From Chloroflexota bacterium (GTDB taxonomy: Bacteria; Chloroflexota; Anaerolineae; Anaerolineales; JBFLVL01), in the NCBI GenBank assembly GCA_040758495.1, contig JBFLVL010000009.1, positions 27,516 to 91,515 of the forward strand: a stretch of 64,000 nucleotides of DNA, written 5' to 3'. The translations under genes were made by a program, and so were the position numbers. Positions 17,582 to 53,972 of this stretch are shown in pieces; the stretch's first letter is position 1, and each line of letters opens with the position of its first letter. The notes beneath the pieces were generated by a model that saw only the letters and a list, made by a program, of their open reading frames with translations, was not told the origin of the DNA and made no database searches.

Positions 17582-17590
17582 ATTGCTTCC

Positions 17591-18335: not shown

Positions 18336-20102
18336 TCAACGGACAGGCTCCTCTAGCGGCTCCTCAACTGGTTGATGGGTCTCGCTCTCTACGGTGATCT
18401 CACCATTGGGGAACAGATCACCACGCACCCATAACACGAGGGCTTCTGTTCGGGTGGGTAACTCCCTCTGTGTGAGCCATCGGAGTATATTCGTAGACCA
18501 AAGCTCATTCCAGATCACAACGGAACGCCAGGCAAAATCCTGACCGCGGTACATCGCGGTTTGGCGTGGCTCTCCAGATTCTTTAGGCAACACAATCACT
18601 TCAGAGGCTGCACCCGTTTCCAGCCCAGATTGAAATCTGGCATTGGTGAAATCCCTTAAAACCCATCTCAAAGCTGGAGAATCTACATCCACTACCACAA
18701 CATTCACTGCTTCACGATCCCCTGTACGCCACTTGCTCAATTCACCCAGTGTCTGCAACAATAAATCTGCCTGTACAATTTCATCACCAGACCTCCACAA
18801 TGGGTTACTTGCCTGTGATCGAAGTTGAGAAGCTCCAAAGGACGCGCTCACAGTTAGAAGTGCCAACCCCACCCCAAATCCGAATGCGAAACCCCGCCGA
18901 GCTTCTGCCAGGGACCATCCCAAAGATACCAATAAAAACGATAACGTCTGGATGACCACCACCCCACCCAGCGCGATCCACCGCAGCCGGTACATTTCTA
19001 TCTGGGGAGACGTGCGTCCCAGAGAGACCAGATCCAACCAACCGAAGGCAAACAATACCAACGTCAACGCAGCCAGCCCCCACTCAACAGGTGAATGCCT
19101 CCACCTACGAAAAATACGAGCCAACCCAATCCCCGCCAGAGACCACAAAGGCACAAGTGACCAAGCCAGATCACCAAAATCCCTGGCCGGATAGGCTAAC
19201 GCTAAACCTGTTGCAACCACCCACCACAGGCACAACCACCTGCCCAACGCATGCCGTTCCCTCCAAACAACTATTGCCCCCACAACTCCAAACACAATTG
19301 CCAACGACTGGTCGCATAACACCATCAATAAATGGGAAGCAGGTTCACCGCCTCCCGTTCCCCACCCGCGCAGATAAGCAGGCAAGGAACCGACCATGGC
19401 ATTTATTCCATTAGGGAAAAAGAACAACATGGTACCAACAACTAGCAGAGTCGTTCCCCCGGCAATCAAACCTTTCCGGATAAATTCACCAAGGTCACGA
19501 TCGGACATCACGCCTGCTACCGTACCCACATCGGGGGACTCCACCTGGACGGGACCCAAAGCCCGCGCCACCCCCAGCGTGGTCGCCAACCCAATCACCC
19601 CCGGCCAGATTGCCGTCCCCGAGAGCAAAGCCCAAGCCCCCCATATACCTGTCCAGATCGCAGAACCACTCCACAAGGCCGTCAATGCAAACAAGGTAAA
19701 AGCTACCGCCAGTAACGGACTACCAGCCACCCGTGACAACGCCACCAGCCCAGGATCCAACGCCAGCCCAAAAGCAAGGATCAACCCTGCCACCCTTCCT
19801 AACCTATCCCGCCATAAATAGGGCACCCAAACCAGGGCACTGCCTGCCAGTACAGGCCACAACCTGGCCATGATAGCATTCGTACCAAAAAGGAAGAATA
19901 AAAAGGCAGTAGGTAGAACATACCCCGGTTGTGGACCCAGGAGGACTTCTTCACCCCGCACCAAAGCGAGGGCTTGTAAAGCCCAACTGGCCTCCACATC
20001 TGAAAGGGGTATTAAACCCAAATTGATTAACCGCACCCCCACAGCAAGCAAAAATGCCAGCAGATATAAAATGAGTTCGTTAGAGAAATTCCTTTTGTTC
20101 AT
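18336..20102 (-). CDS. Polytopic membrane protein, GT-C (PMT_2/ArnT-like) glycosyltransferase candidate with a C-terminal soluble domain
   Basis: The 588-aa ORF has more than 10 hydrophobic helices. The first loop motif RLINLGLIPLSDVEASWALQA resembles the D/E-containing first-loop motif of GT-C enzymes. The function is inferred. Confidence 0.6.
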   Translation of the reverse strand: MNKRNFSNELILYLLAFLLAVGVRLINLGLIPLSDVEASWALQALALVRGEEVLLGPQPGYVLPTAFLFFLFGTNAIMARLWPVLAGSALVWVPYLWRDRLGRVAGLILAFGLALDPGLVALSRVAGSPLLAVAFTLFALTALWSGSAIWTGIWGAWALLSGTAIWPGVIGLATTLGVARALGPVQVESPDVGTVAGVMSDRDLGEFIRKGLIAGGTTLLVVGTMLFFFPNGINAMVGSLPAYLRGWGTGGGEPASHLLMVLCDQSLAIVFGVVGAIVVWRERHALGRWLCLWWVVATGLALAYPARDFGDLAWSLVPLWSLAGIGLARIFRRWRHSPVEWGLAALTLVLFAFGWLDLVSLGRTSPQIEMYRLRWIALGGVVVIQTLSFLLVSLGWSLAEARRGFAFGFGVGLALLTVSASFGASQLRSQASNPLWRSGDEIVQADLLLQTLGELSKWRTGDREAVNVVVVDVDSPALRWVLRDFTNARFQSGLETGAASEVIVLPKESGEPRQTAMYRGQDFAWRSVVIWNELWSTNILRWLTQRELPTRTEALVLWVRGDLFPNGEITVESETHQPVEEPLEEPVR

Positions 20103-20203
20103 GATACCGTCAAATTATATCGTAATGCTACTGCCCGGTCAGTCGAAAGAGCAGGTATAACCACAGCTATAGGGCTCAATACCCAAAGAAGGGAAAAACA
20201 TCA

Positions 20204-20755
20204 TTAAACCATATGCGATATAACGATACGCATGCCAATCAAGATCACACTGCCAACTATCTGCATTCTTCTTCCGAATGCCCGTCCTAATCTTGATCCC
20301 ATGGCAACCCTGATGACTGAAACCAACAAAGTGACCAGACCAATAAATAAGCTGGGGGTTAACACCTTTATCCTCAACATGGCCAATCCCAACCCAATGG
20401 CCAGTGTATCAATACTCGTGGCAGTTGACAGCATTAATAACATTAATCCCCTCGTCGGATTACTGTGCATTGAGCTTACTTTTTTATCATCATTATCTCT
20501 AATCATACGAATGGCTACAAAAAGCAGGAGCACAAAAGCAACCCAATGATCATAGAGCGCGATGACAGGTTCAATCCATATTCCTAGCGACCATCCAAGG
20601 ACAGTCATAAAGAATTGAAAGAATCCGAAATGGAAGGATAGCCGAAGCATGGACTGGATTCCCGTAGCTTTCCCAGCACTCCCCACTGCCAGGGAAACCG
20701 CGAAAGAGTCCATAGACAAACCGATAGCTATTAATAATATCTCCCAAAATTCCAA
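20204..20755 (-). CDS. mntP: Manganese efflux pump MntP (DUF204 family)
   Basis: The 183-aa ORF has 6 TM segments and the duplicated signature LSMDSFAVS / TSIDTLAIG. Confidence 0.85.
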   Translation of the reverse strand: MEFWEILLIAIGLSMDSFAVSLAVGSAGKATGIQSMLRLSFHFGFFQFFMTVLGWSLGIWIEPVIALYDHWVAFVLLLFVAIRMIRDNDDKKVSSMHSNPTRGLMLLMLSTATSIDTLAIGLGLAMLRIKVLTPSLFIGLVTLLVSVIRVAMGSRLGRAFGRRMQIVGSVILIGMRIVISHMV

Positions 20756-20800
20756 ATCACAGTTCTCCTATTTGTGCCAACAGTTTTTAGGGAGCTGCGT

Positions 20801-23290
20801 CTACGGTTCACTGCCCAATTCCGTTGACCAGGCGTAAATCTTCGTCTGCCCCATTTGAAACACCAGCTCCATGTATCGCTGAAATTTCGTCTCGTTCACC
20901 GAATATGTACGACGCTCCAATGCGCCCACATACACATATCGGATATCATAACGTTCAAGGAGATCTCTTGTCGCACCCCAGTCGTTCGTAGAATATAACT
21001 GCATGATATCACTCTGGCGGGAGCCTAGCTCATCGGCGCTGCCTCGCCACTGGACTTCGTGCCCCGGCCAGTTGAGCACAGAGGGCAACCCGCTATGGGT
21101 AGCAATTCGACCATACTGACTATATGAATTACCCACCGCTTCCACAATGACACCCGCGGGTACGGTCTGTAGCCACTCGACTGCCATCCTGTCCTCGGCA
21201 GTAAGCAAGCCGGAGTTCAATGTGCCATCCAACGTCCAACCAACCGAAGGCTGGAAACCGTTCGTCTTCGTTACCAAGCCCATAGTCGGATACACCATGC
21301 CAGACACCAACACCAGTACGATTACCAGTCTGTAAACCAACCCCCAACCGCCCTTCACCTCCCGCAATAAGATGGCTGTTCCGTACGCAGCGGCACAACT
21401 CCACATCAACCATGACTGGTAGTAGAACTTGAAGATGGTGTTCATCCGGGTGCCAAACTGATCCCGAAGGTAAATAAATTCTGGTATCAGGGTTACCACC
21501 GTACCCAACAACACCATCCCTGTCACGAACACGTTTGGGTGGATATGGACTGTATTCTTCCCGCTTGTTTCAACTTTTTCCTGCGGCCAAAGCCCACTGA
21601 TTGCCAGGCTTAAGAAAAACGCCAGGGTAAGCCACCCGGCCGGGGTCGCCAACCGCCGCCGTATAGCTTCTACAAATAAGGCAAGCGCGCCCGCTTCTCC
21701 TGCTCCCAGATGGTCAAGGAAAAGCTCACCTAACACAGGCAGTCGGGTAATGGCCCAACCTAACATCAAAGAGAAGAACCAGAGTCCAACCACGAGGAGC
21801 AAGCCTAAGCCCATGGCGCACAACATTATCTTCCAATTCATCTGACGAACAACATACAGGAGGTATATTCCAATAGGGATTAGCAAGGTTCCAAACATGA
21901 CCCACAGATGTACGCCGCGTGTGGGGTTGAGCAGGTTAGGAAGTATCCCTCCCGCCTGGGAGGAAAAACCTAAATAAAAAGGTAAATAAATCAGACCACC
22001 TAAAACGCCCAGGGCAAGAACCAAGCCCAAGAACTCTCGTAAACGCCACCAACTCCATCCCGCATATCCCGAACGCTGTAAAACGAAGGTGCCCGCGAAC
22101 AGGGCTAAATAGATGGGAAAATCCCAGGCGTTGAGGGTGAACAGCGAGCCTAACACAAGTCCGCCAAAGAGAAAAGATTGAAGGTTTAACGGTATCCACC
22201 ACTTGCGCCAACCTGTCTCCCCTTGACCACCTCCAAAGTACAGGTTTATGGCCAGAGCGATCGCCAAGAGTCCAAACGGCATGGCCAAGACATGCGGATG
22301 CAAATCGCCCAACAGGTAGGAGAAAAAGGGAAATTCGTCAATCACCTCTCGCCAGACACCGGCAAAGTCGTAGTCCTGTACAACCCGCGAACCCCGCCAC
22401 CACCACCAATGACGCGTGGGTATCCAACCGAAGGGTTGCGAGGGTGGCAGGCTGAGTTCCTTCATGTCTAACCAGGTCCAGAATTTCGACACCATAGTTC
22501 CATCAGACGTCTTTTGCCAGAACAGGCCACGGGCGTGCAACACTTCGAGAACACCCTCGAAGTTGCTCACTATCAATAAAAACAGAGGGCCGAGCAACCC
22601 AAGCCATCCATCAGCCTCGTTCCTAACCGATGGAGAATCTGAACCTCTACATTCCCTTCCCCTTTTCAGAAGGTTATATACCACACCGTAACCCCCTATA
22701 GCGCTCAGAGCGAATACCAGCGCAAGTCCCAGGTTGAAAGCCACACCTGCAGCAGTGTTACTCACTTCTGCAAGCATGGCGACCAAAACATATCCAAAAT
22801 AGTAGTACGAGATAGCATATCCTGACAACCAGGGGTCATGTGGTGGGAAAGTTGGCGAGTGCATGATGGCATTGATAAATGCCAATTCCATCGGCTTCTC
22901 GGTTCCGAAAATTTCCGGGTTAACCGCACGCACAATTGTCCAACCAGCAAAGGCTAACAAAAACAACCATTCTACGAAGAAAACATATATTCGATGTCTT
23001 ACGAACCAGGTTTTGATCTCATCCCAGCCGACGCTTCGAAAAGCCCAACCACTGAGCACCAGCAGCAGGATAAAGGCAGTTAATAACCCTCCACTACTGT
23101 TCGTTAAAAAACCCAAGGAGGTCAACAACCAAAAAACATATCCCCACAGAAGCCACCCAAACGTTCGGCTGAAGGCATAACCACGTCCGGGCAGGGCAGG
23201 TAATAACCGATACAATATGGGAAAAGCAACTAACCCCAAAATGGAGATCAGCACATACCAGAGTACGAATGAGACAATATCGGTAATCAT
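20801..23290 (-). CDS. Large polytopic membrane protein of the YYY-motif family (DUF2298 / 'Chlor_Arch_YYY'-like, named from memory)
   Basis: The 829-aa ORF carries ...SPTFPPHDPWLSGYAISYYYFGYVLV.... It is paralogous to the C-terminal half of the upstream 1627-aa protein. It has a 4-nt start/stop overlap at 23287-23290. Confidence 0.8.
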   Translation of the reverse strand: MITDIVSFVLWYVLISILGLVAFPILYRLLPALPGRGYAFSRTFGWLLWGYVFWLLTSLGFLTNSSGGLLTAFILLLVLSGWAFRSVGWDEIKTWFVRHRIYVFFVEWLFLLAFAGWTIVRAVNPEIFGTEKPMELAFINAIMHSPTFPPHDPWLSGYAISYYYFGYVLVAMLAEVSNTAAGVAFNLGLALVFALSAIGGYGVVYNLLKRGRECRGSDSPSVRNEADGWLGLLGPLFLLIVSNFEGVLEVLHARGLFWQKTSDGTMVSKFWTWLDMKELSLPPSQPFGWIPTRHWWWWRGSRVVQDYDFAGVWREVIDEFPFFSYLLGDLHPHVLAMPFGLLAIALAINLYFGGGQGETGWRKWWIPLNLQSFLFGGLVLGSLFTLNAWDFPIYLALFAGTFVLQRSGYAGWSWWRLREFLGLVLALGVLGGLIYLPFYLGFSSQAGGILPNLLNPTRGVHLWVMFGTLLIPIGIYLLYVVRQMNWKIMLCAMGLGLLLVVGLWFFSLMLGWAITRLPVLGELFLDHLGAGEAGALALFVEAIRRRLATPAGWLTLAFFLSLAISGLWPQEKVETSGKNTVHIHPNVFVTGMVLLGTVVTLIPEFIYLRDQFGTRMNTIFKFYYQSWLMWSCAAAYGTAILLREVKGGWGLVYRLVIVLVLVSGMVYPTMGLVTKTNGFQPSVGWTLDGTLNSGLLTAEDRMAVEWLQTVPAGVIVEAVGNSYSQYGRIATHSGLPSVLNWPGHEVQWRGSADELGSRQSDIMQLYSTNDWGATRDLLERYDIRYVYVGALERRTYSVNETKFQRYMELVFQMGQTKIYAWSTELGSEP

Positions 23291-26200
23291 GGTTGCTTCA
23301 TCACTTCATAGATAACTGTATCCCCATCTCTATATACCGATTGCCAATAGATACCATCCCAGGCAGTAAACTTCTCCAGGCCAGGACCCGGGTAGGCGGC
23401 GCGTTCCAGTTGACCGACGATGATATACTGTACATCATATTCTCGCAGGAATTTCACCGCGGTACCAATATCCCCTGTCAGGTAAAACTCGTTGATTTGG
23501 GTTACACGCTCAGTGACTTTTTCTGGCGAAGCTGGACCCCGTTGTTGACGTTGATGCCAGTCCCACCCCACTACACCTGGGAGGCCAGTGTAAATGGTGA
23601 AGCGAGAGAACCAATGATACAGGTTGAGTGAATTGGCCTCAACAATCACCGGGGAACCTTTTACCTGATCTTGCATCCACCGAATAGCCCGGTAATCCTG
23701 GCTGAGATCAAGTTCCTTGTTGAGGTCAAAGTAGGTAGCATATTGCATATAAGCCATTCCGTCCAGTGTATGTGGAGCTTCTGAGGCCATGCGGTCTTGA
23801 ACCTTGGCTATCGTGCCTACGAAGGGAAAGAGCGCTGCCCCAGCTACCAGGAAAGCGAGTGCCAGTTGCCAGAATAACCTCCAGCCTGGTAGCCAGTATT
23901 TGAGATCACGCCATACTAAGCCAAGTGCCACGGCTGCACTCACCGAGAATAACACCCAGGCTTGAAGATAGAATTTAAACACTGTGTTCATCCGACCGAT
24001 ATCACCGCTAACCACGATGACCTCTACCATGAGCGTGAGTGTTAATCCCAACCCCACAAAGAAGAGCAAAACCCGTTTGGTATCCGATAACCCTGAACGA
24101 AGTAACAAAACCCCTACCCAAACGATCAGTGGTACCACTAACCAGGCTATATGTACCCCATAATACATCAATCCTGCAACACTTACGACCAACAATACCA
24201 CACCAATCTGGATAAGGCCAAAATACGGTCGGATTCTAGATAACGCCGATAAGGGCGTGGAGGCCAACCACTGGCGCGTTTCCCAGATTATCCAACCCAC
24301 AATCACAAACAGGAACAAACCCCAATGGGTTAAATAGGCACCCGATGGGGTCCGTGGCCCCTTCCAAAAATCAACCGTCCGGTAACCTTGAGCGTACCAG
24401 TAAGCATACGGTTGATAAAGCAGTATGGCTAAACCTGCTAGAACAGCCATTCCCAGTAAGATGACTAACACGAGCTTGACCACCCTGATTAACCGCTCCG
24501 ATAAATCCGTAGGATTTTGACCTACCTGAATATCCCTATCTTCGTTTCGATACCACCACAATGTATACGCCACCGCAACCATGCCCAGGGGGAGATAGGA
24601 GTAGATATCGGACAGGTTGATGGGATAAAGAGCACCGATAATCAAGCCACCGAACATGAAACCCCACGCTATCTGCCCAATAGAGCGTCGGCTTTGTCCT
24701 TCCCTCTTCCAGGCACGGCCGAAAACAAATGATAACGCCCAGGCTATCGCCAGCAATGCCACGGGAATAGCAATGAGATGTGCATGTAAATCCGCATACA
24801 AAACAGTAAAAAATGGGAACTCTGTGATGGGCTCCACATCCCCTTGGGGTGGGATCACACGGCTGGGATTCCAATACCATTCATCGGCACGATAAGGCAA
24901 TTTCGCTCCCGACAGCGTCTCGAAAAATCCACGCGCAGCCCAAAACCAACGGATTAACACCCCTCCACCTTCCAATGAACCGGTTGGAGATCCCAGTTGC
25001 TGCAACCCGTGGAAGATCATGCGCACCACACCCAGGTTGCCCAGAACAGCCAACCCTAACCCCGCGGCTATCCCGACAAAAAATGTCATTCCTTTCCAGG
25101 GTTTAGCCCACCGCATGGCCTGAGAGGCAGCATCCTTGTTTTTAGGGAAAACCAGATTCCACCCGATGGAAAAAGCGCCCATGGCCATCAGACTGAATAT
25201 GCTGGGGATAACCAAATTGTACACCACTGTCGGGCTGATACCTAACAGCTTGATCCATACACCCACAAGCACAAATCCGTAGTAGTAATAGTTGATGTAA
25301 CCACCGGCATACCAAGGATCATAGGGCGGGAATGTGGTGCTCTTCATCACAGCATTCAAATAGGAAAAATCCATCGGTTTTTCGCCACCCTTGTATGGGT
25401 GCCATAAATCCGAGTTGCCCAAACGGATAAAGAGGTCGAAGAGGAAAAACGCCAGCATGAGAGCCTCTACCATAAGGAAGTACTTCTTGCGTTCCCTCCA
25501 TTCTTGTCGCAACGCCTCCCTTTGGCAATACGCCAGAATCCCGGACACCAACATGAAACCAAGGAACACCCCCAGGATCGTCAACCGAGTGGCAGGAACA
25601 CCCAGAGACCCTCCCAGCCACACCGGATATGCAAACATCAACAATCCGGCTATCCGCGCCAGAGGATAGCCCCTATCTGCCAACCCGCTCAAAGCCAGAC
25701 GGATGATCGGGTAGGCAAGCAAGCCTAAAATCAGTACGCTCACATACCAGAAGATGGCTCCCAGTGCGGGGTAGAGATTAATTATCCAATCTGAGGGGAA
25801 TAATTCCGCCCAGGTGCCGCCCTCTCGCTGTTCAACCAAACGTCCTTCGGGGAGCATCAGACTCTTCAGAACAACCTTACTGGCTTCCTCGGTCGCGCTC
25901 GCACGGACACTCGAGAGGTCTACGCTACCCAAGATTGCAGCTACTGCTTCGGGATCATAATCCGAGGATTTACGGAAGATGAACACCTTGGGGTGGTCAT
26001 ACACCGTAAAGGATTCTTCTGCAAACTGGTCGTTTATGCGCCATGAACCCAGATTAGGATCGGACTGAAATACTTTAATCAAGTCAAATCCTAAATCCCC
26101 CTCAAAACTACCCACCTGAGCAATGTTGTAACACCACTCCAAAGTATGGCCTTGCGGACATCCCATCAGGTGCTGGTAATACGCCCAGGTGAGAGGGTAA

Positions 26201-28170: not shown

Positions 28171-28183
28171 ACCTCACTCCTTG

Positions 28184-30310
28184 TCAGGGCACAAGAAAAA
28201 TCATGAAATCCTTCCCCTCAACCGCAGAGACATATCGCTGGAGAATACCCGAAGGATACATATCCGTCAACAAGATACCGGTTAGCTCGTCCTCGGGTTT
28301 ATAAATAAACAGCTTCGGAGGGGGGATCTCAAGGGTCGCGGGTAAATCCTTCCCCCATAGGGCATAGTCCTTCTCTGGCAAACCCACGTTGATTCCCACC
28401 ACGCGGGTATCCACCCAATGGGGAAAGGGTACGACCCAGGCAGTTTCCGCCTCACCGATCGAATCAGCGTACGAACGGATGACATGTCCGATTTCGCTCG
28501 TGTTCCATGTGTTTTGCCTCATCTGGCGGAAATATTGATCGAATACCAGATCATAATTCTGGATAGAGGACCACGATAAAAGGAGGAAGACTGCTCCCCA
28601 GAGGATTCCACCCCCCGCGCGGGTTTTCACCGCGGATTTCAGGCTGGTCAAAAAACCCTCAAACAGAATCCCCACCACAACAAAGACCGGCACAATTGCC
28701 CCACCTGTACGATTCAGAGAAGGATTCTCAGCCGGAAACGCCAATGAAAGCACAGAAGGCATCAACAGCATAGGTATGGATAATAATAAAAAGGCGTCTT
28801 CCCATTGCCGCCTGCGGATGTAGCGAGTTAAGAGAAATACTACTCCCAAAAAGAACAACGCCCCCGAAACAACATCCAACGCCGGACGATGGGTAACGGA
28901 GTGCACCCAGGTCGAGCCGTCGTCCCAAAAGAACATGGTCACCGCCCCCCACAGGTTATCAAAAAAGATGCGAACAGGAGAATCGGGGTAACTCCGCTCC
29001 ATCGTACCAATTCGGGTTAGCGTTCGATAGGAAAAGTTAGCCGGCTCTGCCAGAGCATAACGCAGCAGAGGGAGAAAGACGACAAAAGAAACCAACACCA
29101 GAGCCACCAAAGCCCAGATGGTTTGTACGCGAGCGCCCTTAGACACTCTATGCAACAGATACAAACCTACACCCAATAACACTAAGAAAGGTACAAAACG
29201 GAAAGGGCTGTATCCGTGTAACCCTAAACCTAACGCCAACCCTGCCAACAGCAAATCATTACGGTTCCGGTTTCGCAACCCTCGTATCAGGTAATATAGA
29301 GTTGGAGCGACAAACAGAGGATAAAAAGCAAAGCGTAAGGCGATACGAGAAATCACATTTGGCCAGTAAGCAATGCCCGCGAACAGCATGGCCCATAAAC
29401 CCACCCGTTTTCCCCCCACTTCCTTCCCTAGCAGGTACACATAAGGTAAAGTCAAAACACCTGCTAAAGCTGTACCAATTTTTAAGCTGAGGTATGTCAG
29501 GCCAGTCCCCAACACTCTGGCCACCAGCGCGGTCACGACCATTTGTATGGCCTCCCGTCCGGTGTTGCGAGGGAAGAACACCCACCAGTTACCCCGGAGC
29601 ACATCAGCAACATCCAGCAATTTCTCAGCATGGTCACTGATCATCTCCGGAGGGACATCTCCCAGACGATAAAAGCGGAAAAACACTGCCAGACCAAAAA
29701 CCCCCACCCAGGAAATAGCCCAGGGAGTGATACGCACCCACCAGGTACGTTGAGCAATTCCCTCGCGCAACCTCGCAAACCAATCCCTAAAGGACAAGCC
29801 TCGCGACACCCAAAACGTTTTTAACAAGGCTACAACGGTCAATAACCACAGGAAGAGGTTTAAGCCATCAAAGCGCAAGCTACCAAAAGCTAAAAACGTG
29901 AAAACCGCCAGGGGAATAAAAATGTAGAACCAGTTACTTTTGATGGTCAAAGGGTCTTCCATGTGCAGGCTGGGGGGAATATCTGGGCCTGACCACTCCC
30001 CTCGCCAGATTAACCAGACCAACAACAAACCAGCCAGTGCATAAAAAGTTATCCCTACCCAGATGTTCCTGTCCCCTGGTTCTAGGGAACGCTGGGCGAT
30101 AAGAGCCAACGCTACAGGCAGCCACATATACCAGATAACTGCTGGCCTCTTCCCTTCCCTCCCAGGAGGTAGACCACCAGGTTCAGGAAACCCCTCCTCC
30201 ATAGCCTCACGTTTGGGAATGTCAGGCGCGGGACCCTTCCAGGGGGTTAACTTCGCCTTGAGGTAATCTAATACGCTTGGTTCTGGTTGTCCGTTTTCCT
30301 TCATCATCAT
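28184..30310 (-). CDS. Glycosyltransferase family 39-like (ArnT/PMT-like) membrane protein
   Basis: The 708-aa ORF has more than 10 TM segments and the loop FYRLGDVPPEMISDHAEKLLD. The track start overlaps the methyltransferase gene by 89 nt. An internal ATG at 30202 (MEEGFPE...) would remove the overlap. Confidence 0.7.
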   Translation of the reverse strand: MMMKENGQPEPSVLDYLKAKLTPWKGPAPDIPKREAMEEGFPEPGGLPPGREGKRPAVIWYMWLPVALALIAQRSLEPGDRNIWVGITFYALAGLLLVWLIWRGEWSGPDIPPSLHMEDPLTIKSNWFYIFIPLAVFTFLAFGSLRFDGLNLFLWLLTVVALLKTFWVSRGLSFRDWFARLREGIAQRTWWVRITPWAISWVGVFGLAVFFRFYRLGDVPPEMISDHAEKLLDVADVLRGNWWVFFPRNTGREAIQMVVTALVARVLGTGLTYLSLKIGTALAGVLTLPYVYLLGKEVGGKRVGLWAMLFAGIAYWPNVISRIALRFAFYPLFVAPTLYYLIRGLRNRNRNDLLLAGLALGLGLHGYSPFRFVPFLVLLGVGLYLLHRVSKGARVQTIWALVALVLVSFVVFLPLLRYALAEPANFSYRTLTRIGTMERSYPDSPVRIFFDNLWGAVTMFFWDDGSTWVHSVTHRPALDVVSGALFFLGVVFLLTRYIRRRQWEDAFLLLSIPMLLMPSVLSLAFPAENPSLNRTGGAIVPVFVVVGILFEGFLTSLKSAVKTRAGGGILWGAVFLLLSWSSIQNYDLVFDQYFRQMRQNTWNTSEIGHVIRSYADSIGEAETAWVVPFPHWVDTRVVGINVGLPEKDYALWGKDLPATLEIPPPKLFIYKPEDELTGILLTDMYPSGILQRYVSAVEGKDFMIFLVP

Positions 30311-31118
30311 CTACCAGTTGATGGATTTGTCCTCTCAACCGAGTGATATAAAACGTATACACGCCCTCCGGCTGAGGGACGGGCTCATTATAATGTGGCT
30401 CTACCAAACCGCGGGTTAGTGCCAAGTTCCACCGAAAAGGAGCAATAATCCAGCGACCAAACAGCCATTTACAGACCAGGGATGGAAACTCGAAAAAATG
30501 CCCCCACTCCAACACAGCCAAGGCCTCGGGAGAGAAATAATGCCAGTATTGTTCAATCTCATAGCCAGCCCATTCCAACCTGTTTCGCCAAACCTCTACA
30601 GAATCACAGTGATGATGTCGGGAGATTCGGTTGAAAGCTGCTCGATAGCCATTTCCCAACCAGCGCAGACCCACTTTATCGAAAAACCGTCCTATTGAGA
30701 GCTTGGGCAGAAATAAGTGGTTAGGAACACTGAATACAAACCTCGACCCCTGCTTCAACACCCTGGCAATTTCCCTGAGCATCGCATCTACATCACATAC
30801 ATGCTCCAACACAGAATTACTGACCACACTGCAGAAATAGGCCGTTGGAAAAGGAAGGTGACACCCATTCGATTGGATCCTGTACTGGTAAGCCCGGTAC
30901 CCGGCAGCTTCTTGAAGTACCGAGAAATCGCAATCCAAACCTACCTCTAGTGTCCTCTGAAATGCGTTACTGGCGAAATGCCCATCACCACAACCCAGAT
31001 CCAGGGTCGGTGGGTGCAAGGGGATATCCCGATAAAAAACGGCCTCTTTGGCTCGCAGTAATCCGCGGAAATACGGCAGATCGCGGAGATGCATCCATAG
31101 CAGATCTTCGTTCTTCAT
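30222..31118 (-). CDS. Class I SAM-dependent methyltransferase
   Basis: The 298-aa ORF has motif I, LDLGCGDGHF, and the later motif GSRFVFSVPN. Confidence 0.8.
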   Translation of the reverse strand: MKNEDLLWMHLRDLPYFRGLLRAKEAVFYRDIPLHPPTLDLGCGDGHFASNAFQRTLEVGLDCDFSVLQEAAGYRAYQYRIQSNGCHLPFPTAYFCSVVSNSVLEHVCDVDAMLREIARVLKQGSRFVFSVPNHLFLPKLSIGRFFDKVGLRWLGNGYRAAFNRISRHHHCDSVEVWRNRLEWAGYEIEQYWHYFSPEALAVLEWGHFFEFPSLVCKWLFGRWIIAPFRWNLALTRGLVEPHYNEPVPQPEGVYTFYITRLRGQIHQLVDDDEGKRTTRTKRIRLPQGEVNPLEGSRA

Positions 31119-33109
31119 GTGCTGTGTAGGTCATTAACTATGGTTACCTTCTCTGCAGGCTTACTACCTCCAGGAATTCGCCACAGATAAATACACAAGA
31201 CGACACCCACAACAGATATCACCAACCCCAGGACAACATCCCAGGGTAAATAGCGGAAAATAATTGTATGGTTACCTGCTGGCACCTCGACTTCCAACCA
31301 GTTATCTCCCTGCAACATTACCCGCTCACCGTCTCGCCAGGCTTTCCATCCTGACCACATGTTCTCCTTGACTACCAACCGACCGTTCTCTTGTGCTTGG
31401 CAAGAGACTTCAATGTAACCTCCTGCCCCCTGAGCAGTGCAAGGATATTGTGCTTCACCAGCAACCACCGCAGCATAAGGCTGGTCGTTTCGGGCATAGA
31501 TGGGGATACCGTCAATTTCATTCACTTGTTCGACTGGCCCAGGAGGAGGGCCAGCACGGTTGGCCTCCAATACCGGTATAGGAAATTCGCGGTCTTTCCA
31601 GCGCCAGCTCATAATGCCTGGGCTGAGCTTAAAACCCATAGATATAGCCGGTTCAACATAAAAATGCTCTCCAAACGGCGGCTCCACCCATTGCAGATCA
31701 GGCGTTTCTAAACCCCCCAACAAATCATAGATAGGCTGCTCCCAGCAGGATGTGGTGTACCACACCCTTGAAAAGATGTAATTACTGTGCAAACTCAGTA
31801 CCAGTGGGATAACCAACACCCACACTGCGGAAACCCTCCACTGCTCTGTTCTCCCGCTTTTCTTAAAATCCATCCATAACACTGGCCAGTCAAGTCGCAG
31901 CAACCTTTCCAATCCGTAAGCTGCTAACCCCAAAATCAACGGTACTGCTAAAGCCGCAATCTGAGGAGGATGACGGACACCTGCAACCGAGGGAAAAACT
32001 TTCACCAATAAACGCAATACCTCCCCGCTGGCCACCAGGAACTGTAAGAGAATGGCCCCCGAAAAGACATACAACAATCGCCTGTCCTTCGAACGTCCGG
32101 ATGCCACACCAATCACCGCCAAAACCACCGCCACCCAACCGATGTAATTGGCGTATAAATGAGGGTAAGGGAATTTTGACAATGCCTCATCCCAATAAAA
32201 ATCAATTTCATTGATGACCAGATTCAGAGGCACATAGGCTAACGGTTGCGCAGATCGAAACGTCGGATCCGTTTCTTTGACAAAATTTGGCAAGAAATGC
32301 AATGTGGGAATCAAAAAGATTCCCGCCAGGAGCAAAGCTAACCCAACCGCCAATAAAAACTCTTTCCACACCGGTTTCAGGTTAAAACCATCATCGAAGA
32401 GCAGAAAAAAGAAAGCCGGGACGGTTACCAATAGACCGATTTGAATATACCCCTGCCCGGCCACTATGGCGGAGGCGATTGTCACACCCAACAGAACCAT
32501 CGTCCTTCTACCGCCCCTTCGTGCAACCGCAACCACTGCTGGATACACCAGGCTGCACATTGCGATAGAAAGTACAACACCAAACGCACCCAACTCCATG
32601 CGAGCAGACAAATACCCTCCAAATACCGCCATCAGAGAACTCCACAACCTGGGTATTCGAGAAAGTCCCAGCTCGCGTGAAAGCCACCATTGACCCACAC
32701 CCGCGAACCAGATGGCCATCACTAACATAAGTTTTACCCCATTGACCACACCTAACAATAAAGTTAACCCCATCACCAGGGGATGCAACATGCTTCCATG
32801 CAGATCAACAAAGGCTGGATATCCACCTCGCTCAAATCCATTCCATAAGGCACAAATCCCACATTGCTTAAACAGCGTCCAGATATGATGCGTCTGAATC
32901 GCGCTGCCAAATTCACGACCGTTAGCCACAACGCGGGGGGTTAGGTTCAGGTACTCTCTACCCACCCACATTGCAGCTAGGGCCAGAAGTGACAACTCCA
33001 AGGCGGGAACAACCCAGGTTCTGGCACCTAAAAGAAAGCGTTCCCAAAACAGTAGTAGTTGAGTGTTTCTACACATGACTTCTTTTATCCTCTTTCCCCT
33101 TGGTCTCAA
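31115..33109 (-). CDS. Polytopic membrane protein with a C-terminal extracytoplasmic domain and a terminal TM; function unknown (possible GT-C/YfhO-like)
   Basis: The 664-aa ORF has ~12 hydrophobic helices followed by a soluble region ~170 aa long and a final TM segment. It has 4-nt overlaps on both sides. I did not recognise a diagnostic motif. Confidence 0.6.
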   Translation of the reverse strand: MRPRGKRIKEVMCRNTQLLLFWERFLLGARTWVVPALELSLLALAAMWVGREYLNLTPRVVANGREFGSAIQTHHIWTLFKQCGICALWNGFERGGYPAFVDLHGSMLHPLVMGLTLLLGVVNGVKLMLVMAIWFAGVGQWWLSRELGLSRIPRLWSSLMAVFGGYLSARMELGAFGVVLSIAMCSLVYPAVVAVARRGGRRTMVLLGVTIASAIVAGQGYIQIGLLVTVPAFFFLLFDDGFNLKPVWKEFLLAVGLALLLAGIFLIPTLHFLPNFVKETDPTFRSAQPLAYVPLNLVINEIDFYWDEALSKFPYPHLYANYIGWVAVVLAVIGVASGRSKDRRLLYVFSGAILLQFLVASGEVLRLLVKVFPSVAGVRHPPQIAALAVPLILGLAAYGLERLLRLDWPVLWMDFKKSGRTEQWRVSAVWVLVIPLVLSLHSNYIFSRVWYTTSCWEQPIYDLLGGLETPDLQWVEPPFGEHFYVEPAISMGFKLSPGIMSWRWKDREFPIPVLEANRAGPPPGPVEQVNEIDGIPIYARNDQPYAAVVAGEAQYPCTAQGAGGYIEVSCQAQENGRLVVKENMWSGWKAWRDGERVMLQGDNWLEVEVPAGNHTIIFRYLPWDVVLGLVISVVGVVLCIYLWRIPGGSKPAEKVTIVNDLHST

Positions 33110-34302
33110 CGTCGCAGCTCTTTTAACAGATTTCCGAAAAGTACCTCATAGGCCTCAGCAGGTACATCAGGACTGAAACGACGCCTCACCTCCGCGGGGT
33201 TGCCTTTATATGCCTTAGGGTTGCGTAAAACTTTCAGCAAACCAGCGGCCAAACTTTGGGCATCTCCAATTTCAGTCATCTCACCCATCCCGGTAATTCG
33301 TACAGGCTGGCGCACACCGGGTAGGTTCGAGGCCACTACCGGCACACCGTTCATCATCGCCTCAATCTGCACCAGACCAAACGACTCGGTTGCGTTCAAA
33401 CTTGACACAACCAGGACATCCAGATTGGGGTAAAAAGCAGCCATCTCACCAGGAGTCAAGACACCTAGAAACTCCCAATGTCCGGAAGACCGGTAAGCGG
33501 CTAATCTAGGTTCCAGCTTCTTGTAGTATGCCTCTTCACCCAACACATCTTGATATTGACCGGCAAACAGCACCCGTGCATGCGGGTACACTTCCAGGAT
33601 GTACGGCAAGGCGTCGAGAAGCACTTCCACCCCTTTTTCAGCAGCCAGACGGGCAGCCATCCCGATGATGGGCTGCCGTCCTTCCGGGTTGTGTCGCTGC
33701 TTAAACTGTTTTATCTCCGCCGGTGTAACCTCGGGTAGTTCGACCGGAGGCGTGATGATGTGAACTTTATCTGCAAAGCCCTGTAAATAGGGTGAATGAT
33801 CGGCGAAATCCTGGGTGTAGGCTACGATACGATGTGTAAATATGGCCGCCAGATAATTCATCACATGCACAACCTGATTCACCACGCGGTTGAAAATCCC
33901 GGGTGGTAATGTCAGATCACAATGATAAGTAATCACCGTGGGCTTTTTCAGTAATCTGCCTCGCAACGCAATCCCCGCGGCGTCAAACTGTGGCAAATGA
34001 AGATGTACAACATCGTTTTGTAAGACCAACTTCGTAGCTAATAACCCAATAGTGGGCATAATGACCCCCTTGCTGATCCGTAGAATAACCGGAGCGCGCA
34101 CGACGCGCACACCATCCTTCACTTCATCCCGCGGCAAAGAATGGTCATACTGGGAGGTCAACACCGTGACCTGATGCCCACGACGGGCAAGCGCTCTGGT
34201 CAACCGTTCAACATAGATGGTCAACCCGCTGGTATGCGGTCGGTAATAGGTTAGAGCGGTAAGAATTCGCATGAGATCCTGGTCCCCGGAAACCGGTTTC
34301 AA
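33106..34302 (-). CDS. GT4-family (group 1) glycosyltransferase
   Basis: The 398-aa ORF has an EX7E region ESFGLVQIEAMMNG and the N-terminal segment MRILTALTYYRPHTSGL. Confidence 0.85.
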   Translation of the reverse strand: MKPVSGDQDLMRILTALTYYRPHTSGLTIYVERLTRALARRGHQVTVLTSQYDHSLPRDEVKDGVRVVRAPVILRISKGVIMPTIGLLATKLVLQNDVVHLHLPQFDAAGIALRGRLLKKPTVITYHCDLTLPPGIFNRVVNQVVHVMNYLAAIFTHRIVAYTQDFADHSPYLQGFADKVHIITPPVELPEVTPAEIKQFKQRHNPEGRQPIIGMAARLAAEKGVEVLLDALPYILEVYPHARVLFAGQYQDVLGEEAYYKKLEPRLAAYRSSGHWEFLGVLTPGEMAAFYPNLDVLVVSSLNATESFGLVQIEAMMNGVPVVASNLPGVRQPVRITGMGEMTEIGDAQSLAAGLLKVLRNPKAYKGNPAEVRRRFSPDVPAEAYEVLFGNLLKELRR

Positions 34303-35327
34303 GTAAACAAATTCCGGTTTTCAACCACCCAATTATACAGACTTTCCACCCCTTGTCCGACAGATATCCTTGGTCGCCAACCTAGCTCGCTACTAACTTT
34401 GCGGATATCGGATATGTACACCCGTTGATCCCCCGGACGGCTCGGCCCCCATTCCACTTCGATCCGCCTGCCCAAACATTTCTCCAGTAGAGGGCTGAAT
34501 TCAATCCAGATAGATAATGTATTGTCTACACCTCCGCCGACGTTGTACGCTTTTCCGGAGGCAACTCCAATTTTCTGGACGGCTATGTCGTACAAGTCAA
34601 GAAGGTCATCTATGTGCAGCACGTCACGCACTTGTTTGCCACTGCCGTATATCGAAATCGGTCTGCCGGTCACCACAGCAATCGTAAACCAGGCCAACCA
34701 TCCCTGATCTTCGATCCCAAACTGACGTGGCCCGTAGATACAGCTCTGCCGGAATACCACCGTACGCAGACCGTAGATACGATGAAAATCCATCGTGTAC
34801 TGGTCACCCGCACCTTTAGAACAACCATACGGCGAATGAAAATCCAGGGGATGCGTTTCTGATACTCCGTAGGGCAGCTTGGCAAAGCTGTATCGTGTTG
34901 GCTGTTCTATAACTCCCACGGCCTCCAGGGCGCCATAGACTTTGTTGGTGGAAGCATACAAGACAATGGGATCCCGGTCGGATATTCGTGCGGCCTCCAG
35001 CACATTCAACGTCCCTAGAGCATTAACCTCGAAATCCTCGCGTGGTCGGGCTATGGAAGTAGTAACCGCCACCTGTCCCGCCAGATGGAGGATGACATCC
35101 GCATCCTTTACAACCCGAGAAACCAAGTCTTCGTCACGGATATCTCCAACCACCATCTCAAAGGATTGCTGACCAAATGTGCCCATCAGCCACTCCACAT
35201 TCCGGTTTGCTCCAGGTCGCGAAAGGTCATCTAACACGGTAGCGCGTTCTCCGCGGCTCAATAACCGGTAAACATAATTCGAACCAATGAAACCAGCCCC
35301 ACCAGTTACAAGGTACTTCTTCTGCAT
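34299..35327 (-). CDS. NAD-dependent sugar epimerase/dehydratase (extended SDR)
   Basis: The ORF has the Rossmann motif YLVTGGAGFIGSN and the catalytic SPYGCSK (YxxxK). I placed the start at ATG 35327 (MQKKYLVTGG...) because it has a GGGAAGGG SD. The track start at 35381 would overlap the upstream gene. Confidence 0.85.
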   Translation of the reverse strand: MQKKYLVTGGAGFIGSNYVYRLLSRGERATVLDDLSRPGANRNVEWLMGTFGQQSFEMVVGDIRDEDLVSRVVKDADVILHLAGQVAVTTSIARPREDFEVNALGTLNVLEAARISDRDPIVLYASTNKVYGALEAVGVIEQPTRYSFAKLPYGVSETHPLDFHSPYGCSKGAGDQYTMDFHRIYGLRTVVFRQSCIYGPRQFGIEDQGWLAWFTIAVVTGRPISIYGSGKQVRDVLHIDDLLDLYDIAVQKIGVASGKAYNVGGGVDNTLSIWIEFSPLLEKCLGRRIEVEWGPSRPGDQRVYISDIRKVSSELGWRPRISVGQGVESLYNWVVENRNLFT

Positions 35328-35352
35328 ACAACCCTTCCCATACAAAACAAGT

Positions 35353-36315
35353 TTATTCCGAGGAACCCATTCTGGATTCACGCACTATCCTGAAAAGCCC
35401 AAGCATGGATTCACCCTCTCGGGTTAAACCATACAACCCCAGAGGGATAGTGACCAAGAAATATACCAGGTGATTCGTCAGTGCATACGCTAAGGCCACT
35501 TCAGGTCGGACACCAAACACAGCCAGCGCACCCATCATCGAAGCCTCAACTACGCCGATAAACCCTGGAGATGAAGGCACGACCACACCTAAGGCGCCGA
35601 TACCCAAGGCAAAAGCTCCCCATAACCAGGTGGCTTCTGGAATAAAAGCACGCAATAACAAGGTGTATTCAACCAACAATGCACCCCAGACAACCGCCAT
35701 GGCAAACAGCACAACACCAAACTGTCGAATGTCGGTGAGTATCTCCAAACCGGTGACAAATGCCCTCAACCGCCCGACTCCCAGACGTCCAATCCACTTC
35801 CAGCGTGCAGCAACACCATCTAACCAGTTGAAGAATTTTTCCTGATAGCGCGCCAGAAAGTGTAACATCACCAATCCCAGAACCACGACCCCTCCCAAAC
35901 TCATGGCCACATTTCTTGCCCAGGTGGTGCCAACCACAAAGGGTACCGAAGCAAGCAAAATTCCGGCAGCATAGAGAATATCAAAACCCCGTTCAAGCAA
36001 AATGGTCGAAGCGACCCTCCAGAATTCCAGAGGGGTCACCAGGCTGAGCAACACCGCCCGACTTACCTCTCCAACACGGAAGGGCAGCAGGTTGTTAAAT
36101 AGATATCCTACATTGATGGTGAAAAAAAGGCGTGACCAACTAACCTGTCTGTGTAACATCATTCTCCAGGCCAAACTGCGCACGAACAGGGAAAACACAA
36201 ACACAACCGTGCCTGCCAGGATAAAGACAACATTTGCTTCTCGCAAACTGCGGCCTACCTCCGGCAAATCTACGAACCAGAGGATGAGCACGATAGCCAG
36301 AACTGTGATGGCCAC
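35353..36315 (-). CDS. Flippase-like / lysylphosphatidylglycerol-synthase-TM-region family membrane protein
   Basis: The 320-aa ORF has ~8 TM segments and carries ...INVGYLFNNLLPFRVGEVSRAVLLS..., the R.GE..R signature of this family as I recall it. Confidence 0.7.
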   Translation of the reverse strand: MAITVLAIVLILWFVDLPEVGRSLREANVVFILAGTVVFVFSLFVRSLAWRMMLHRQVSWSRLFFTINVGYLFNNLLPFRVGEVSRAVLLSLVTPLEFWRVASTILLERGFDILYAAGILLASVPFVVGTTWARNVAMSLGGVVVLGLVMLHFLARYQEKFFNWLDGVAARWKWIGRLGVGRLRAFVTGLEILTDIRQFGVVLFAMAVVWGALLVEYTLLLRAFIPEATWLWGAFALGIGALGVVVPSSPGFIGVVEASMMGALAVFGVRPEVALAYALTNHLVYFLVTIPLGLYGLTREGESMLGLFRIVRESRMGSSE

Positions 36316-37201: not shown

Positions 37202-37252
37202 TCAGGTATCCCCATTTCGCTATCGGTTATCCGCTATTACAGTGTATTGTTG

Positions 37253-37281
37253 TTCAGCGTTCAGCAAACCTCATGTATAAT
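37253..37281 (+). promoter_or_regulatory. Possible promoter giving a leaderless UbiA-family mRNA
   Basis: A perfect TATAAT at 37276-37281 ends 7 nt before ATG 37289, and that ATG has no SD. The -35 element is weak (TTCAGC, 37253-37258). Confidence 0.3.
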
Positions 37282-37288
37282 CACCCCC

Positions 37289-38164: not shown

Positions 38165-38173
38165 ACTGCTTGG

Positions 38174-39130: not shown

Positions 39131-39133
39131 GAC

Positions 39134-53851: not shown

Positions 53852-53972
53852 CCTGCAAGTTGTAACCATCTTGTTATCATATCGTACAGGCACCTGCCAT
53901 AACCACCCTGGCAACATGTCAAATCGTCTCACGAAATTAAATATCATAGAAAACCCGAAGTGCAATTCTAAT

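Follow-up and report, generated by a model that had tools for sequence, protein, structure and literature searches.

A stretch of 64,000 nucleotides from Chloroflexota bacterium (Anaerolineae; Anaerolineales; JBFLVL01; NCBI GenBank assembly GCA_040758495.1, contig JBFLVL010000009.1, positions 27,516 to 91,515), referred to here as the window, carries a minus-strand gene cluster at positions 18336–36315 that probably builds a previously undescribed cell-envelope glycan. The reading that we favour, and to which we give about an even chance, is that of an operon, conserved class-wide in Anaerolineae, whose proteins would assemble a glycan at the outer surface of the cytoplasmic membrane in three stages, with a lipoglycan as the product. 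The observed basis for this reading consists of gene content, conserved gene order, GT-C folds, conserved motifs of a catalytic type, and the families to which the epimerase and a nearby UbiA-type enzyme belong. From these we infer the lipid acceptor of a family 4 glycosyltransferase (GT4), the cargo of a flippase-like protein, the donor of each GT-C module and the final product. The enzyme classes and the synthase–flippase–GT-C logic are already known. What is new is the combination of a TyvE-type epimerase, a PimA-like GT4, a UPF0104 flippase and five GT-C modules (two of them of the YYY family), and its class-wide occurrence in Chloroflexota.

The original prediction, made from the sequence of the window, had described an uncharacterised envelope glycan assembly locus, and this description is supported on three counts. 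A full-text literature search found no functional study that ties the locus to a glycan or that addresses DUF2298, TIGR03662, TIGR03663, PF10060 or YYY-domain proteins. The large proteins have GT-C-like folds, as judged by AlphaFold2 models and Foldseek for the YYY and 588-residue proteins and by scores over the PMT_2 cutoff for the other two modules. Further, the genes are not scattered in related genomes, their order being collinear across Anaerolineae.

Gene content and conserved order

Open reading frame (ORF) calls in the window returned exactly the ten co-directional minus-strand genes first described, which run from 36315 down to 18336 (aa, amino acids):

35353..36315 (−): flippase-like protein, MprF-type stand-alone (UPF0104/PplT, LPG_synthase_TM), 320 aa; PF03706 138.8 bits, TIGR00374 69.8 bits
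34299..35381 (−): extended short-chain dehydrogenase/reductase (SDR), TyvE-type, nicotinamide adenine dinucleotide-dependent nucleoside diphosphate (NDP)-hexose C2-epimerase; closest relatives in the PDB are cytidine diphosphate (CDP)-tyvelose 2-epimerases
33106..34302 (−): GT4 glycosyltransferase (GT-B, retaining), PimA-like; Pfam Glycos_transf_1 and Glyco_transf_4
31115..33109 (−): accessory YfhO-like polytopic protein, 664 aa by longest ORF; borderline PF09586
30222..31118 (−): class-I S-adenosylmethionine (SAM)-dependent methyltransferase, 298 aa; Methyltransf_11, _23, _25 and _31 all over cutoff
28184..30310 (−): PMT_2-family GT-C glycosyltransferase, 708 aa; PF13231 39.3 bits against a cutoff of 26.1
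23287..28170 (−): 1627-aa fusion of a PMT_2-like GT-C module, a soluble region and a YYY/DUF2298 module; Pfam and NCBIfam
20801..23290 (−): stand-alone YYY/DUF2298 (TIGR03662) protein, 829 aa; TIGR03662 479.3 bits against a cutoff of 300.25
20204..20755 (−): mntP, manganese efflux pump family; PF02659 141 bits
18336..20102 (−): ArnT-like GT-C protein, 588 aa, without a Pfam family of its own and the last core gene; AlphaFold2 and Foldseek

Scans with Pfam and NCBIfam profiles back the domain call of every one of the ten ORFs, and two of the initial names can be sharpened: the protein called an epimerase is of the CDP-tyvelose 2-epimerase type, and the one called GT39-like is better described as a PMT_2/ArnT-like GT-C enzyme. 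In a simple hydropathy scan, the six large or flippase-like membrane proteins tested have 7–21 hydrophobic segments each. The large ones, with 8–21, are polytopic as had been claimed, and ~13 kb of the locus is membrane-protein coding sequence.

A genome scan with the YYY alignment gave at least 560 matching stretches. The best 80 loci, which were the ones used, come essentially all from Anaerolineae/Chloroflexota metagenome-assembled genomes, with one labelled Nitrosomonadaceae. A metagenome scan with the GT4 alignment added 80 more loci. The YYY and GT4 queries together yielded 165 loci, from genomes of Anaerolineae and from related contigs of metagenomes, which were compared by tblastn with the window proteins; the denominators given here are the loci whose contig reaches far enough. 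The core order, collinear in most of the 165 loci, is flippase-like gene, SDR, GT4, methyltransferase (often two), PMT_2, PMT_2+YYY fusion, YYY and 588-aa gene, with cmk and acyltransferase genes next downstream. Around the YYY gene, the fusion gene lies upstream in 51 of 55 loci and the PMT_2 gene in 42 of 48, and the 588-aa gene lies downstream in 56 of 70. Similarly, loci centred on the GT4 gene have the SDR gene (60/62) and the flippase-like gene (47/52) upstream, and the methyltransferase gene (40/53; two copies in locus L004) and the GT-C genes (28/36) downstream.

Neither the 664-aa gene nor mntP has a tblastn match in any of the 165 loci. Both are therefore insertions specific to the source genome and stand outside the system, and the conserved core consists of four giant proteins with five GT-C modules rather than of the five giant proteins first counted. 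The 664-aa protein has 11 hydrophobic segments and scores 28.2 bits against PF09586 (YfhO; cutoff 28.5) over its C-terminal 100 residues only; in the precomputed Pfam annotation, the identical NCBI protein carries PF09586.17, as do some of the homologs. In the three other genomes looked at, homologs of the 664-aa protein neighbour genes for acetyl-CoA carboxylase and have an acyl-CoA dehydrogenase gene upstream (adjoining in two), and in one of the three the homolog is next to a GT2 gene. A disruption of another kind is seen in a complete 4.96-Mb genome, where two IS110-family transposase genes (L001, 6698–9528) lie between the fusion and the stand-alone YYY genes; the cluster thus tolerates disruption of this junction.

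Intergenic gaps are at most ~100 nt throughout the ten-gene run. Four 4-nt start/stop overlaps had been reported, and the two at 31115/31118 and 23287/23290 are plausible, so that translational coupling is plausible at these two junctions only; the other two, at 34299/34302 and 33106/33109, are artefacts of choosing the longest ORF. For the GT4 gene, ATG 34272 is almost certainly the true start, as 13 homologs share the invariant M11 and AGGA stands at −8; the N-terminus can be aligned with homologs from Met11 onward only. The SDR gene probably starts at Met19 (ATG 35327). For the 664-aa gene, the NCBI annotation gives 653 aa, consistent with a start at ATG 33076 (GAGG upstream). In the 708-aa gene, the alternative start Met37 (ATG 30202) would abolish an 89-nt overlap with the methyltransferase gene and is possibly the true one.

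Terminator-like sites all fall inside coding sequence, with none intergenic, and their numbers are only modestly above shuffle expectation. Together with the tight gene spacing, this makes a single long transcription unit a reasonable but unproven assumption. Overall, the scan for promoters and terminators was uninformative, with fewer promoter-like matches than shuffle expectation. The sole intergenic site, CTGACC-17-TATAAT (10/12 matches) at 20114–20142 (−), falls within the 101 nt that separate mntP from the 588-aa gene; it may be an internal promoter that arose, or was kept, where mntP was inserted.

GT-C folds of the large membrane proteins

GT-C enzymes transfer sugars from polyprenyl-phosphate-linked donors outside the membrane, and the position directly after their first transmembrane (TM) helix is the site of catalytic residues. 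By analogy, the GT-C modules of the cluster would also use polyprenyl-phosphate-linked donors outside the membrane. Acidic motifs at this position ('SDHAEK', 'HPDE' and 'pL.d.EA') were read from alignments of 52–61 orthologs. In the 708-aa protein, the motif 'SDHAEK...RNTGRE' after the TM helix is invariant in 59 homologs. In the N-module of the 1627-aa fusion, 'HPDE' is invariant after TM1. In the 588-aa protein, R24 and E37 are invariant in the first loop, within 'pL.d.EA'.

The fusion protein, with 21 hydrophobic segments, divides into an N-module (~25774–28170; PMT_2 38.1 bits, cutoff 26.1), a soluble region of ~370 residues without a Pfam or PDB match, and a YYY module (23287–25773; DUF2298/TIGR03662, residues 804–1623) that scores 349.5 bits against DUF2298 and 478 bits against TIGR03662. 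The stand-alone 829-aa protein reaches 356 bits against PF10060 (cutoff 27.8), and by their TIGR03662 scores both YYY modules are bona fide members of that family. The YYYxG signature of the 829-aa protein (Y162, Y163, Y164 and G166) is invariant in 46 sequences, and the module of the fusion carries 'YINYYYyGf'; the motifs 'E-x-P-M-[ED]', 'FPPxDPW', 'YYY' and 'EFPFF...DLH[PA]H' are common to both.

By sequence, none of the three largest proteins matches a PDB entry, and the soluble C-terminal domains of the large proteins match no Pfam family. Profile–profile comparisons of the YYY family with the 588-aa family, and of PMT_2 with the 588-aa family, returned probabilities below 3%, so that the GT-C kinship of these families is visible at fold level only. 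AlphaFold2 models of the 829-aa and 588-aa proteins were built from 46-sequence alignments and compared with the PDB by Foldseek. For the YYY model, the predicted local distance difference test (pLDDT) score is 87.5 and the predicted template modelling (pTM) score 0.92. Its top five matches are all GT-C enzymes, namely three DPY19 structures, AftA and ArnT (E 6.6e-6 for DPY19, 6.1e-5 for AftA and 1.3e-3 for ArnT, all with probability 1.00), and non-GT-C matches have a probability of at most 0.41. The C-terminal globular domain resembles the C-terminal domain of archaeal AglB (Foldseek probability 1.0). The model thus gives YYY/DUF2298 a GT-C fold, the first structural assignment for this family.

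The 588-aa model (pLDDT 88.9, pTM 0.88) matches ArnT (5f15) with E 2.2e-8 and TM-scores of 0.51/0.55, and ALG9, STT3, Pmt4 and EmbB are matched with probability 1.00. The protein thus combines a GT-C fold with a conserved acidic residue after TM1.

The YYY family comprises 9,800 representatives at 50% clustering, 4,720 of them with E ≤ 1e-30, and TIGR03662 by its TIGRFAM definition spans Archaea as well as Chloroflexi. A GT-C fold for YYY/DUF2298 bears on a family of thousands of sequence clusters without a characterised member. Within the family there are giant chains of 2,000–2,750 aa with several matched stretches (P0393, P0408, P0422, P0423, P0426, P0427, P0433, P0437, P0439, P0473 and P0500). 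Several of the giant chains are consistent with an N-module (~700 residues) followed by two YYY copies in one polypeptide, and would be the single-chain equivalent of the 1627-aa and 829-aa pair. Such fusion elsewhere is an argument of the Rosetta-stone type for joint action of the 1627-aa fusion and the 829-aa protein, and it favours a complex of a physical or functional kind.

Not every protein with this fold need be a transferase. Archaeal Agl23, the TIGR03663 protein, has been described as a flippase for Dol-P-hexose or lipid-linked oligosaccharide; purified Haloarcula Agl23 moves M5GN2-PP-Dol in liposomes and rescues a yeast rft1 deletion (PMC11182771). The TIGR03662/TIGR03663 gene pairs of Archaea and Chloroflexi resemble the cluster in that its YYY genes stand beside PMT-like GT-C genes with weak N-terminal similarity to TIGR03663 (39.8 bits for the 588-aa protein and 35.1 bits for the fusion N-module). 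It is conceivable, if very improbable in our estimate, that some of the GT-C-fold proteins, chiefly these two, are likewise flippases or scramblases of lipid-linked sugars. Both scores, however, are far under the TIGR03663 cutoff of 126.25 bits, so that neither protein is a member of that family, and the locus already encodes a dedicated flippase-like protein. Further, the acidic first-loop motifs and the ArnT-like fold fit catalysis, though they are compatible with transport.

A proposed three-stage lipoglycan model and competing explanations

The flippase-like protein, with 7 hydrophobic segments, scores over the cutoffs of both PF03706 and TIGR00374, and no solved structure is matched by its sequence; by analogy it is predicted to be the translocase for the lipid-linked sugar made by the GT4. 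The methyltransferase is predicted to act on a sugar or a lipid-linked intermediate in the cytoplasm.

The closest solved relatives of the SDR are the CDP-tyvelose 2-epimerases 9rl0 (TaTyvE; E 2.8e-101) and 1orr (StTyvE; E 2.8e-92), with GalE and RmlB only at ~1e-37. The TaTyvE residues Thr124, Asn125, Lys126, Tyr164, Lys168, Asp204, Gln205, Arg237 and Arg299 are kept, so that the catalytic Thr/Tyr/Lys, the TNK segment and the pyrophosphate-binding Lys126, Arg237 and Arg299 are all retained; the departures are Tyr203 to Glu and VAM to VAV. The full-length similarity and the catalytic and binding residues place the SDR in the CDP-tyvelose 2-epimerase family (SDR1E, TyvE). The Thermodesulfatator TyvE enzyme interconverts CDP-glucose and CDP-mannose, and the SDR is predicted to interconvert gluco- and manno-configured NDP-sugars. 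A role as a one-enzyme polyprenyl-P-ribose to arabinose 2-epimerase, in place of DprE1/E2, was considered, for which ORF13 of Kelly et al. offers a precedent (PMC11127046). It is disfavoured by the full-length TaTyvE similarity and by the retained NDP-pyrophosphate Lys/Arg residues, which make it probable that the SDR acts on a nucleotide sugar and not on polyprenyl-P-ribose.

The GT4 aligns over its full length with its best PDB relatives, the PimA structures 4n9w and 2gej (E ~1.5e-16), and shares 58–75% identity with its counterparts in related loci. It remains below every NCBIfam equivalog cutoff and is hence filed as a PimA-like lead and not as PimA. By analogy, its predicted role is to attach a hexose to a membrane lipid on the cytoplasmic side.

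A candidate donor synthase is encoded upstream of the cluster, where tlyA is followed by a divergent block:

37247..38164 (+): UbiA-family polyprenyl-phosphate phosphoribosyltransferase, Rv3806c/DPPR-synthase type; NF008977, NF008978 and 8j8j
38174-39130 (+): mevalonate kinase; TIGR00549 266 bits, over cutoff
39134-39955 (+): isopentenyl-phosphate kinase, archaeal-type; NF040647 196.6 bits, over cutoff

The UbiA enzyme passes its family cutoffs narrowly, with borderline scores of 236.7 bits against NF008977 (cutoff 234) and 225.6 bits against NF008978 (cutoff 207). Its residues 14–297 align with residues 10–293 of Rv3806c (8j8j; 284 residues, E 1.4e-40), the next UbiA-family structure reaching only E 1e-6, and equivalents of Rv3806c Tyr70, Asn73, Asp77 and Tyr138 are kept. 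By cutoffs, full-length similarity and these four residues, the enzyme belongs to the Rv3806c/PPPRS family. Products of such enzymes (polyprenyl-P-ribofuranose and its epimers) are donors of GT-C pentofuranosyltransferases, the known consumers being GT-C enzymes, and serve mycobacteria, Pseudomonas pilin glycosylation and three-component O-antigen systems (PMC11127046). As a candidate for making the lipid-linked pentofuranose donor that the GT-C enzymes of the cluster would use, the UbiA enzyme is a strong lead.

This candidate also qualifies the earlier case for a non-standard pathway. As had been stated, Wzx, Wzy, Wzz, an ABC exporter and GT2 are all lacking among the annotated window ORFs. 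That case leaned in part on the absence of any donor synthase, and while the absence of a GT2 holds, a UbiA synthase of the Rv3806c type is encoded 1 kb upstream.

In the first stage of the model that we favour, the TyvE-type epimerase would turn an NDP-glucose-type sugar into its manno-configured C2 epimer in the cytoplasm, and the PimA-like GT4 would attach the manno-sugar to a membrane lipid, giving an intermediate that one or two SAM methyltransferases may modify. In the second stage, the MprF-type (UPF0104/PplT) protein would flip the glycolipid to the outer leaflet. In the third, the glycolipid would be elongated or decorated with polyprenyl-phosphate-linked sugars by five modules of GT-C fold. 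Four proteins carry these modules: the 708-aa PMT_2 protein, the 1627-aa fusion of PMT_2-like and YYY parts, the 829-aa YYY protein and the 588-aa ArnT-like protein. The best candidate for the donor synthase is the Rv3806c-type phosphoribosyltransferase 1 kb upstream, by the mevalonate-pathway kinases, and as a donor source it would imply pentofuranose (ribofuranose or arabinofuranose) donors. The product would be a lipid-anchored heteroglycan, or lipoglycan, a functional analogue of the actinobacterial phosphatidylinositol mannosides (PIM), lipomannan (LM) and lipoarabinomannan (LAM) in an organism free of lipopolysaccharide (LPS).

Various observations weigh against this model. All functional statements about the cluster components are inferential, and the acceptor lipid of the GT4 in particular is a guess, since the similarity to PimA is modest and under the NCBIfam cutoffs. 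The YYY model has low global TM-scores against solved GT-C enzymes (0.3–0.46), modest values with which the GT-C assignment stands at superfamily level only. The Asp after TM1 of the YYY protein (D35) is at least 90% conserved and not invariant; the invariant acidic residues E131, D152, E319 and D329 sit in later loops. Agl23, to which two of the GT-C proteins are weakly related, is reported to be a flippase and not a transferase (PMC11182771). The UbiA gene is on the opposite strand, ~1 kb upstream and with tlyA between, and the window encodes no 5-phosphatase, DprE1/E2-type epimerase or GT2 polyprenyl-P-hexose synthase. Further, the housekeeping genes tlyA, lepA, cmk and rpoC are equally syntenic, so that adjacency in part reflects general gene-order conservation. 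In most other loci inspected, lepA also intervenes between the UbiA block and the cluster, and the block of isopentenyl-phosphate kinase, mevalonate kinase and UbiA genes is found upstream in 10 of the 23 loci that reach at least 9 kb. With tlyA and lepA intervening and housekeeping synteny just as strong, the linkage of the UbiA gene is a lead and not proof of co-function. Finally, 8 of 36 GT4-centred loci (about a fifth) have the triad of flippase-like, SDR and GT4 genes but no YYY cluster, and a few YYY genes lack their usual neighbours, so that the two halves could be independent.

This independence is the substance of a rival explanation that we consider unlikely, in which two neighbouring systems are at work. 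The triad would be a glycolipid module of the gpgSDF/hexSDF type that tunes the membrane surface, and the GT-C genes would belong to another pathway, whose product would be a wall polysaccharide such as an arabinan-like or ribofuranan-like polymer made from UbiA-derived polyprenyl-P-pentose. The triad does behave as a self-contained unit, standing on its own among varying neighbours in L088, L097, L101, L104, L110, L111 (5320–15274, for example), L125 and L138. The conservation of gene order here extends to unrelated housekeeping genes, and an arabinan-like product would agree with the Rv3806c-type UbiA enzyme and with AftA among the best fold matches of the YYY protein. Against two systems, the GT-C genes directly follow on the same strand with minimal gaps in 28 of the 36 GT4-centred loci, and usually only methyltransferase genes separate them from the triad. 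Even among the variant loci, a PMT_2 GT-C gene is next to the triad in two of the three that carry a 469-aa protein/PIG-L gene set and have their upstream flank covered.

These variant loci have features of their own. The GT4 of triad-only loci is 63–68% identical to that of the window. In L104 and L111 the triad adjoins a divergent 672-aa PMT_2 protein. In L104, L111 and L125 the genes after the triad encode a soluble protein of 469–496 aa (of no known family), a deacetylase of the PIG-L family and an NTP-transferase, with ROK and NamZ genes next in line. A glycosylphosphatidylinositol-like pathway was rejected: the PIG-L and NTP-transferase genes accompany the ROK/NamZ genes of peptidoglycan recycling, and the remaining variant loci lack them.

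Another explanation, on which we also place a low probability, is protein glycosylation. The GT-C enzymes would O- or N-glycosylate secreted envelope proteins (S-layer, sheath or pilin) with lipid-phosphate sugars, as Pmt, AglB, TfpW and DPY19 do, and the flipped GT4 product would serve as donor or primer and not as an anchor. Several structural matches point this way: the best match of the YYY model is the protein C-mannosyltransferase DPY19, its C-terminal domain is like the peptide-binding globular domain of AglB, and STT3/oligosaccharyltransferase and Pmt4 are among the matches of the 588-aa model, STT3 being among the top ones. The family name PMT_2 and the TfpW-type pilin arabinosylation, which draws on an Rv3806c-type donor pathway, also agree with it. 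However, the fold matches reach no further than the superfamily and do not tell acceptors apart, no conserved acceptor-protein candidate gene is seen in the locus when related loci are compared, and five GT-C modules exceed any protein glycosylation system known to us. Further, the PimA-like GT4 and the phospholipid-type flippase point to a lipid substrate, as in the lipoglycan model.

The lipoglycan model has its closest counterpart in the PIM/LM/LAM (and arabinan) pathway of actinobacteria, in which the GT4 enzymes PimA and PimB' act in the cytoplasm and the GT-C enzymes PimE, MptA-C, EmbC and AftA-D act outside, with polyprenyl-P-mannose and the Rv3806c-derived decaprenylphosphoryl arabinose (DPA) as donors. 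The cluster is similar in having a GT4 nearest to PimA, several different extracytoplasmic GT-C enzymes and an Rv3806c-type enzyme with its catalytic residues kept, and AftA and EmbB are among the fold matches. It differs in that its GT-C families have no detectable sequence similarity to the GT-C enzymes of the PDB, the mycobacterial ones included, and no Ppm1-type GT2, phosphatidylinositol synthase, DprE1/E2 or Rv3807c homolog is seen in the window. Beyond the components of that pathway, the cluster has a 2-epimerase of the TyvE type, methyltransferases and an explicit flippase (UPF0104), and its host belongs to Chloroflexota and not to Corynebacteriales.

Established modules that make and flip a glycolipid with a glycosyltransferase and a UPF0104 protein are the P. 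aeruginosa gpgSDF (glucosaminyl-phosphatidylglycerol, GlcN-PG), C. difficile hexSDF and archaeal AglD, a GT2+UPF0104 fusion (PMC12713373, PMC5898192). These share with the cluster a cytoplasmic lipid-directed glycosyltransferase beside, or fused to, a UPF0104/LPG_synthase_TM protein, and GpgS is likewise a GT4. In place of the deacetylase of gpgSDF and hexSDF the cluster has a C2-epimerase, and its GT4 reaches 49 bits against a GlcN_PG_synth cutoff of 480. A PIG-L gene is found only in the three related variant loci, among peptidoglycan-recycling genes. With GT4 and UPF0104 genes adjacent and the deacetylase missing from the locus, the cluster works alike without being a member of these systems. 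As five GT-C modules follow, the glycolipid would undergo further extracytoplasmic processing and would not be the terminal product.

Three-component systems follow the same logic of lipid-linked sugar synthase, flippase and GT-C enzyme: the GtrA/B/V-type, CsbB/GtcA/YfhO, and the pentofuranose systems of a PPPRS, a MATE/SMR flippase and GT136 with an auxiliary SDR epimerase (PMC11127046). The window likewise encodes GT-C enzymes, an SDR epimerase and a PPPRS of the UbiA type. The flippase, in contrast, is UPF0104 and not MATE, SMR or GtrA, and the PPPRS is divergent and separated from the cluster by housekeeping genes (tlyA; also lepA in other genomes). With the PPPRS apart and no MATE or SMR protein detected, the cluster is not a three-component pentofuranose system. 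Having five GT-C modules rather than one suggests polymer assembly and not side-chain decoration.

A bolder extension of the lipoglycan model, which we regard as quite unlikely to hold in full, is that the product is a lipoarabinomannan-like, lipid-anchored pentofuranose/mannose heteroglycan in Anaerolineae and perhaps other monoderm Chloroflexota, made by a route parallel to that of actinobacteria. The YYY proteins would then be a new, very large polymerising GT-C family and the UPF0104 protein a dedicated flippase of a PimA-type primer. To our knowledge, the mycobacterial protein that flips the PimA-type glycolipid has never been identified.

The envelope of Chloroflexota is poorly understood, and whether these bacteria are monoderm or diderm is debated. 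We know of no LPS and no lipoglycan described in the phylum, and a literature search for such a lipoglycan in Chloroflexi was negative. Among filamentous bacteria, Anaerolineae are some of the most abundant in sediments, anaerobic digesters and activated sludge. Considering the class-wide conservation and the ~13 kb of extracytoplasmic glycosyltransferases, the product is probably a major surface component and could influence the integrity of filaments, the formation of sheaths or flocs, and interactions with phages and hosts. For the epimerase, GT4, flippase and UbiA enzymes, the assignments are directly testable hypotheses.

Flanking genes and further observations

The flanks of the cluster are ordinary bacterial housekeeping genes, and no tRNA or Rfam elements were found in the window. 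Downstream lie cmk, three PlsC-type acyltransferases, a histidine kinase, rpoC and gyrA, the first four forming one run:

15461..18274 (−): cmk and three tandem PlsC-type acyltransferases (acyltransferases 15461-17581); Cytidylate_kin and three PF01553

The cmk gene is downstream of the 588-aa gene in 50 of 63 loci, with acyltransferase genes next in many. A tie of the acyltransferases to the glycan, by synthesis of its lipid anchor or by acylation of the glycan, is possible. On the upstream side, the two kinase genes stand immediately downstream of the UbiA gene on the same strand, and the order of the three genes is kept in related loci. The kinases would supply isoprenoid precursors, and their membership in the system is uncertain. 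As an arrangement, the block (37247–39955) suggests an alternative mevalonate pathway coupled to polyprenyl-P-pentose supply in Chloroflexota.

Elsewhere in the window, 13–24 kb away from the cluster, are genes for a ManC-like mannose-1-phosphate guanylyltransferase at 60173–61282 (−), with 300 bits against TIGR01479 and thus under cutoff, and for a CE4 polysaccharide deacetylase at 3648–4886 (+). These could be suppliers or modifiers of envelope glycans. A Na+/H+ exchanger at 53871–55991 (+) is fused to a C-terminal cyclic-di-AMP receptor (CdAMP_rec) domain, an architecture that suggests cyclic-di-AMP-gated cation/proton antiport. Lastly, the topoisomerase I encoded at 57788–60148 (−) carries an N-terminal DUF5679 beside its Toprim, core and zinc-ribbon domains.

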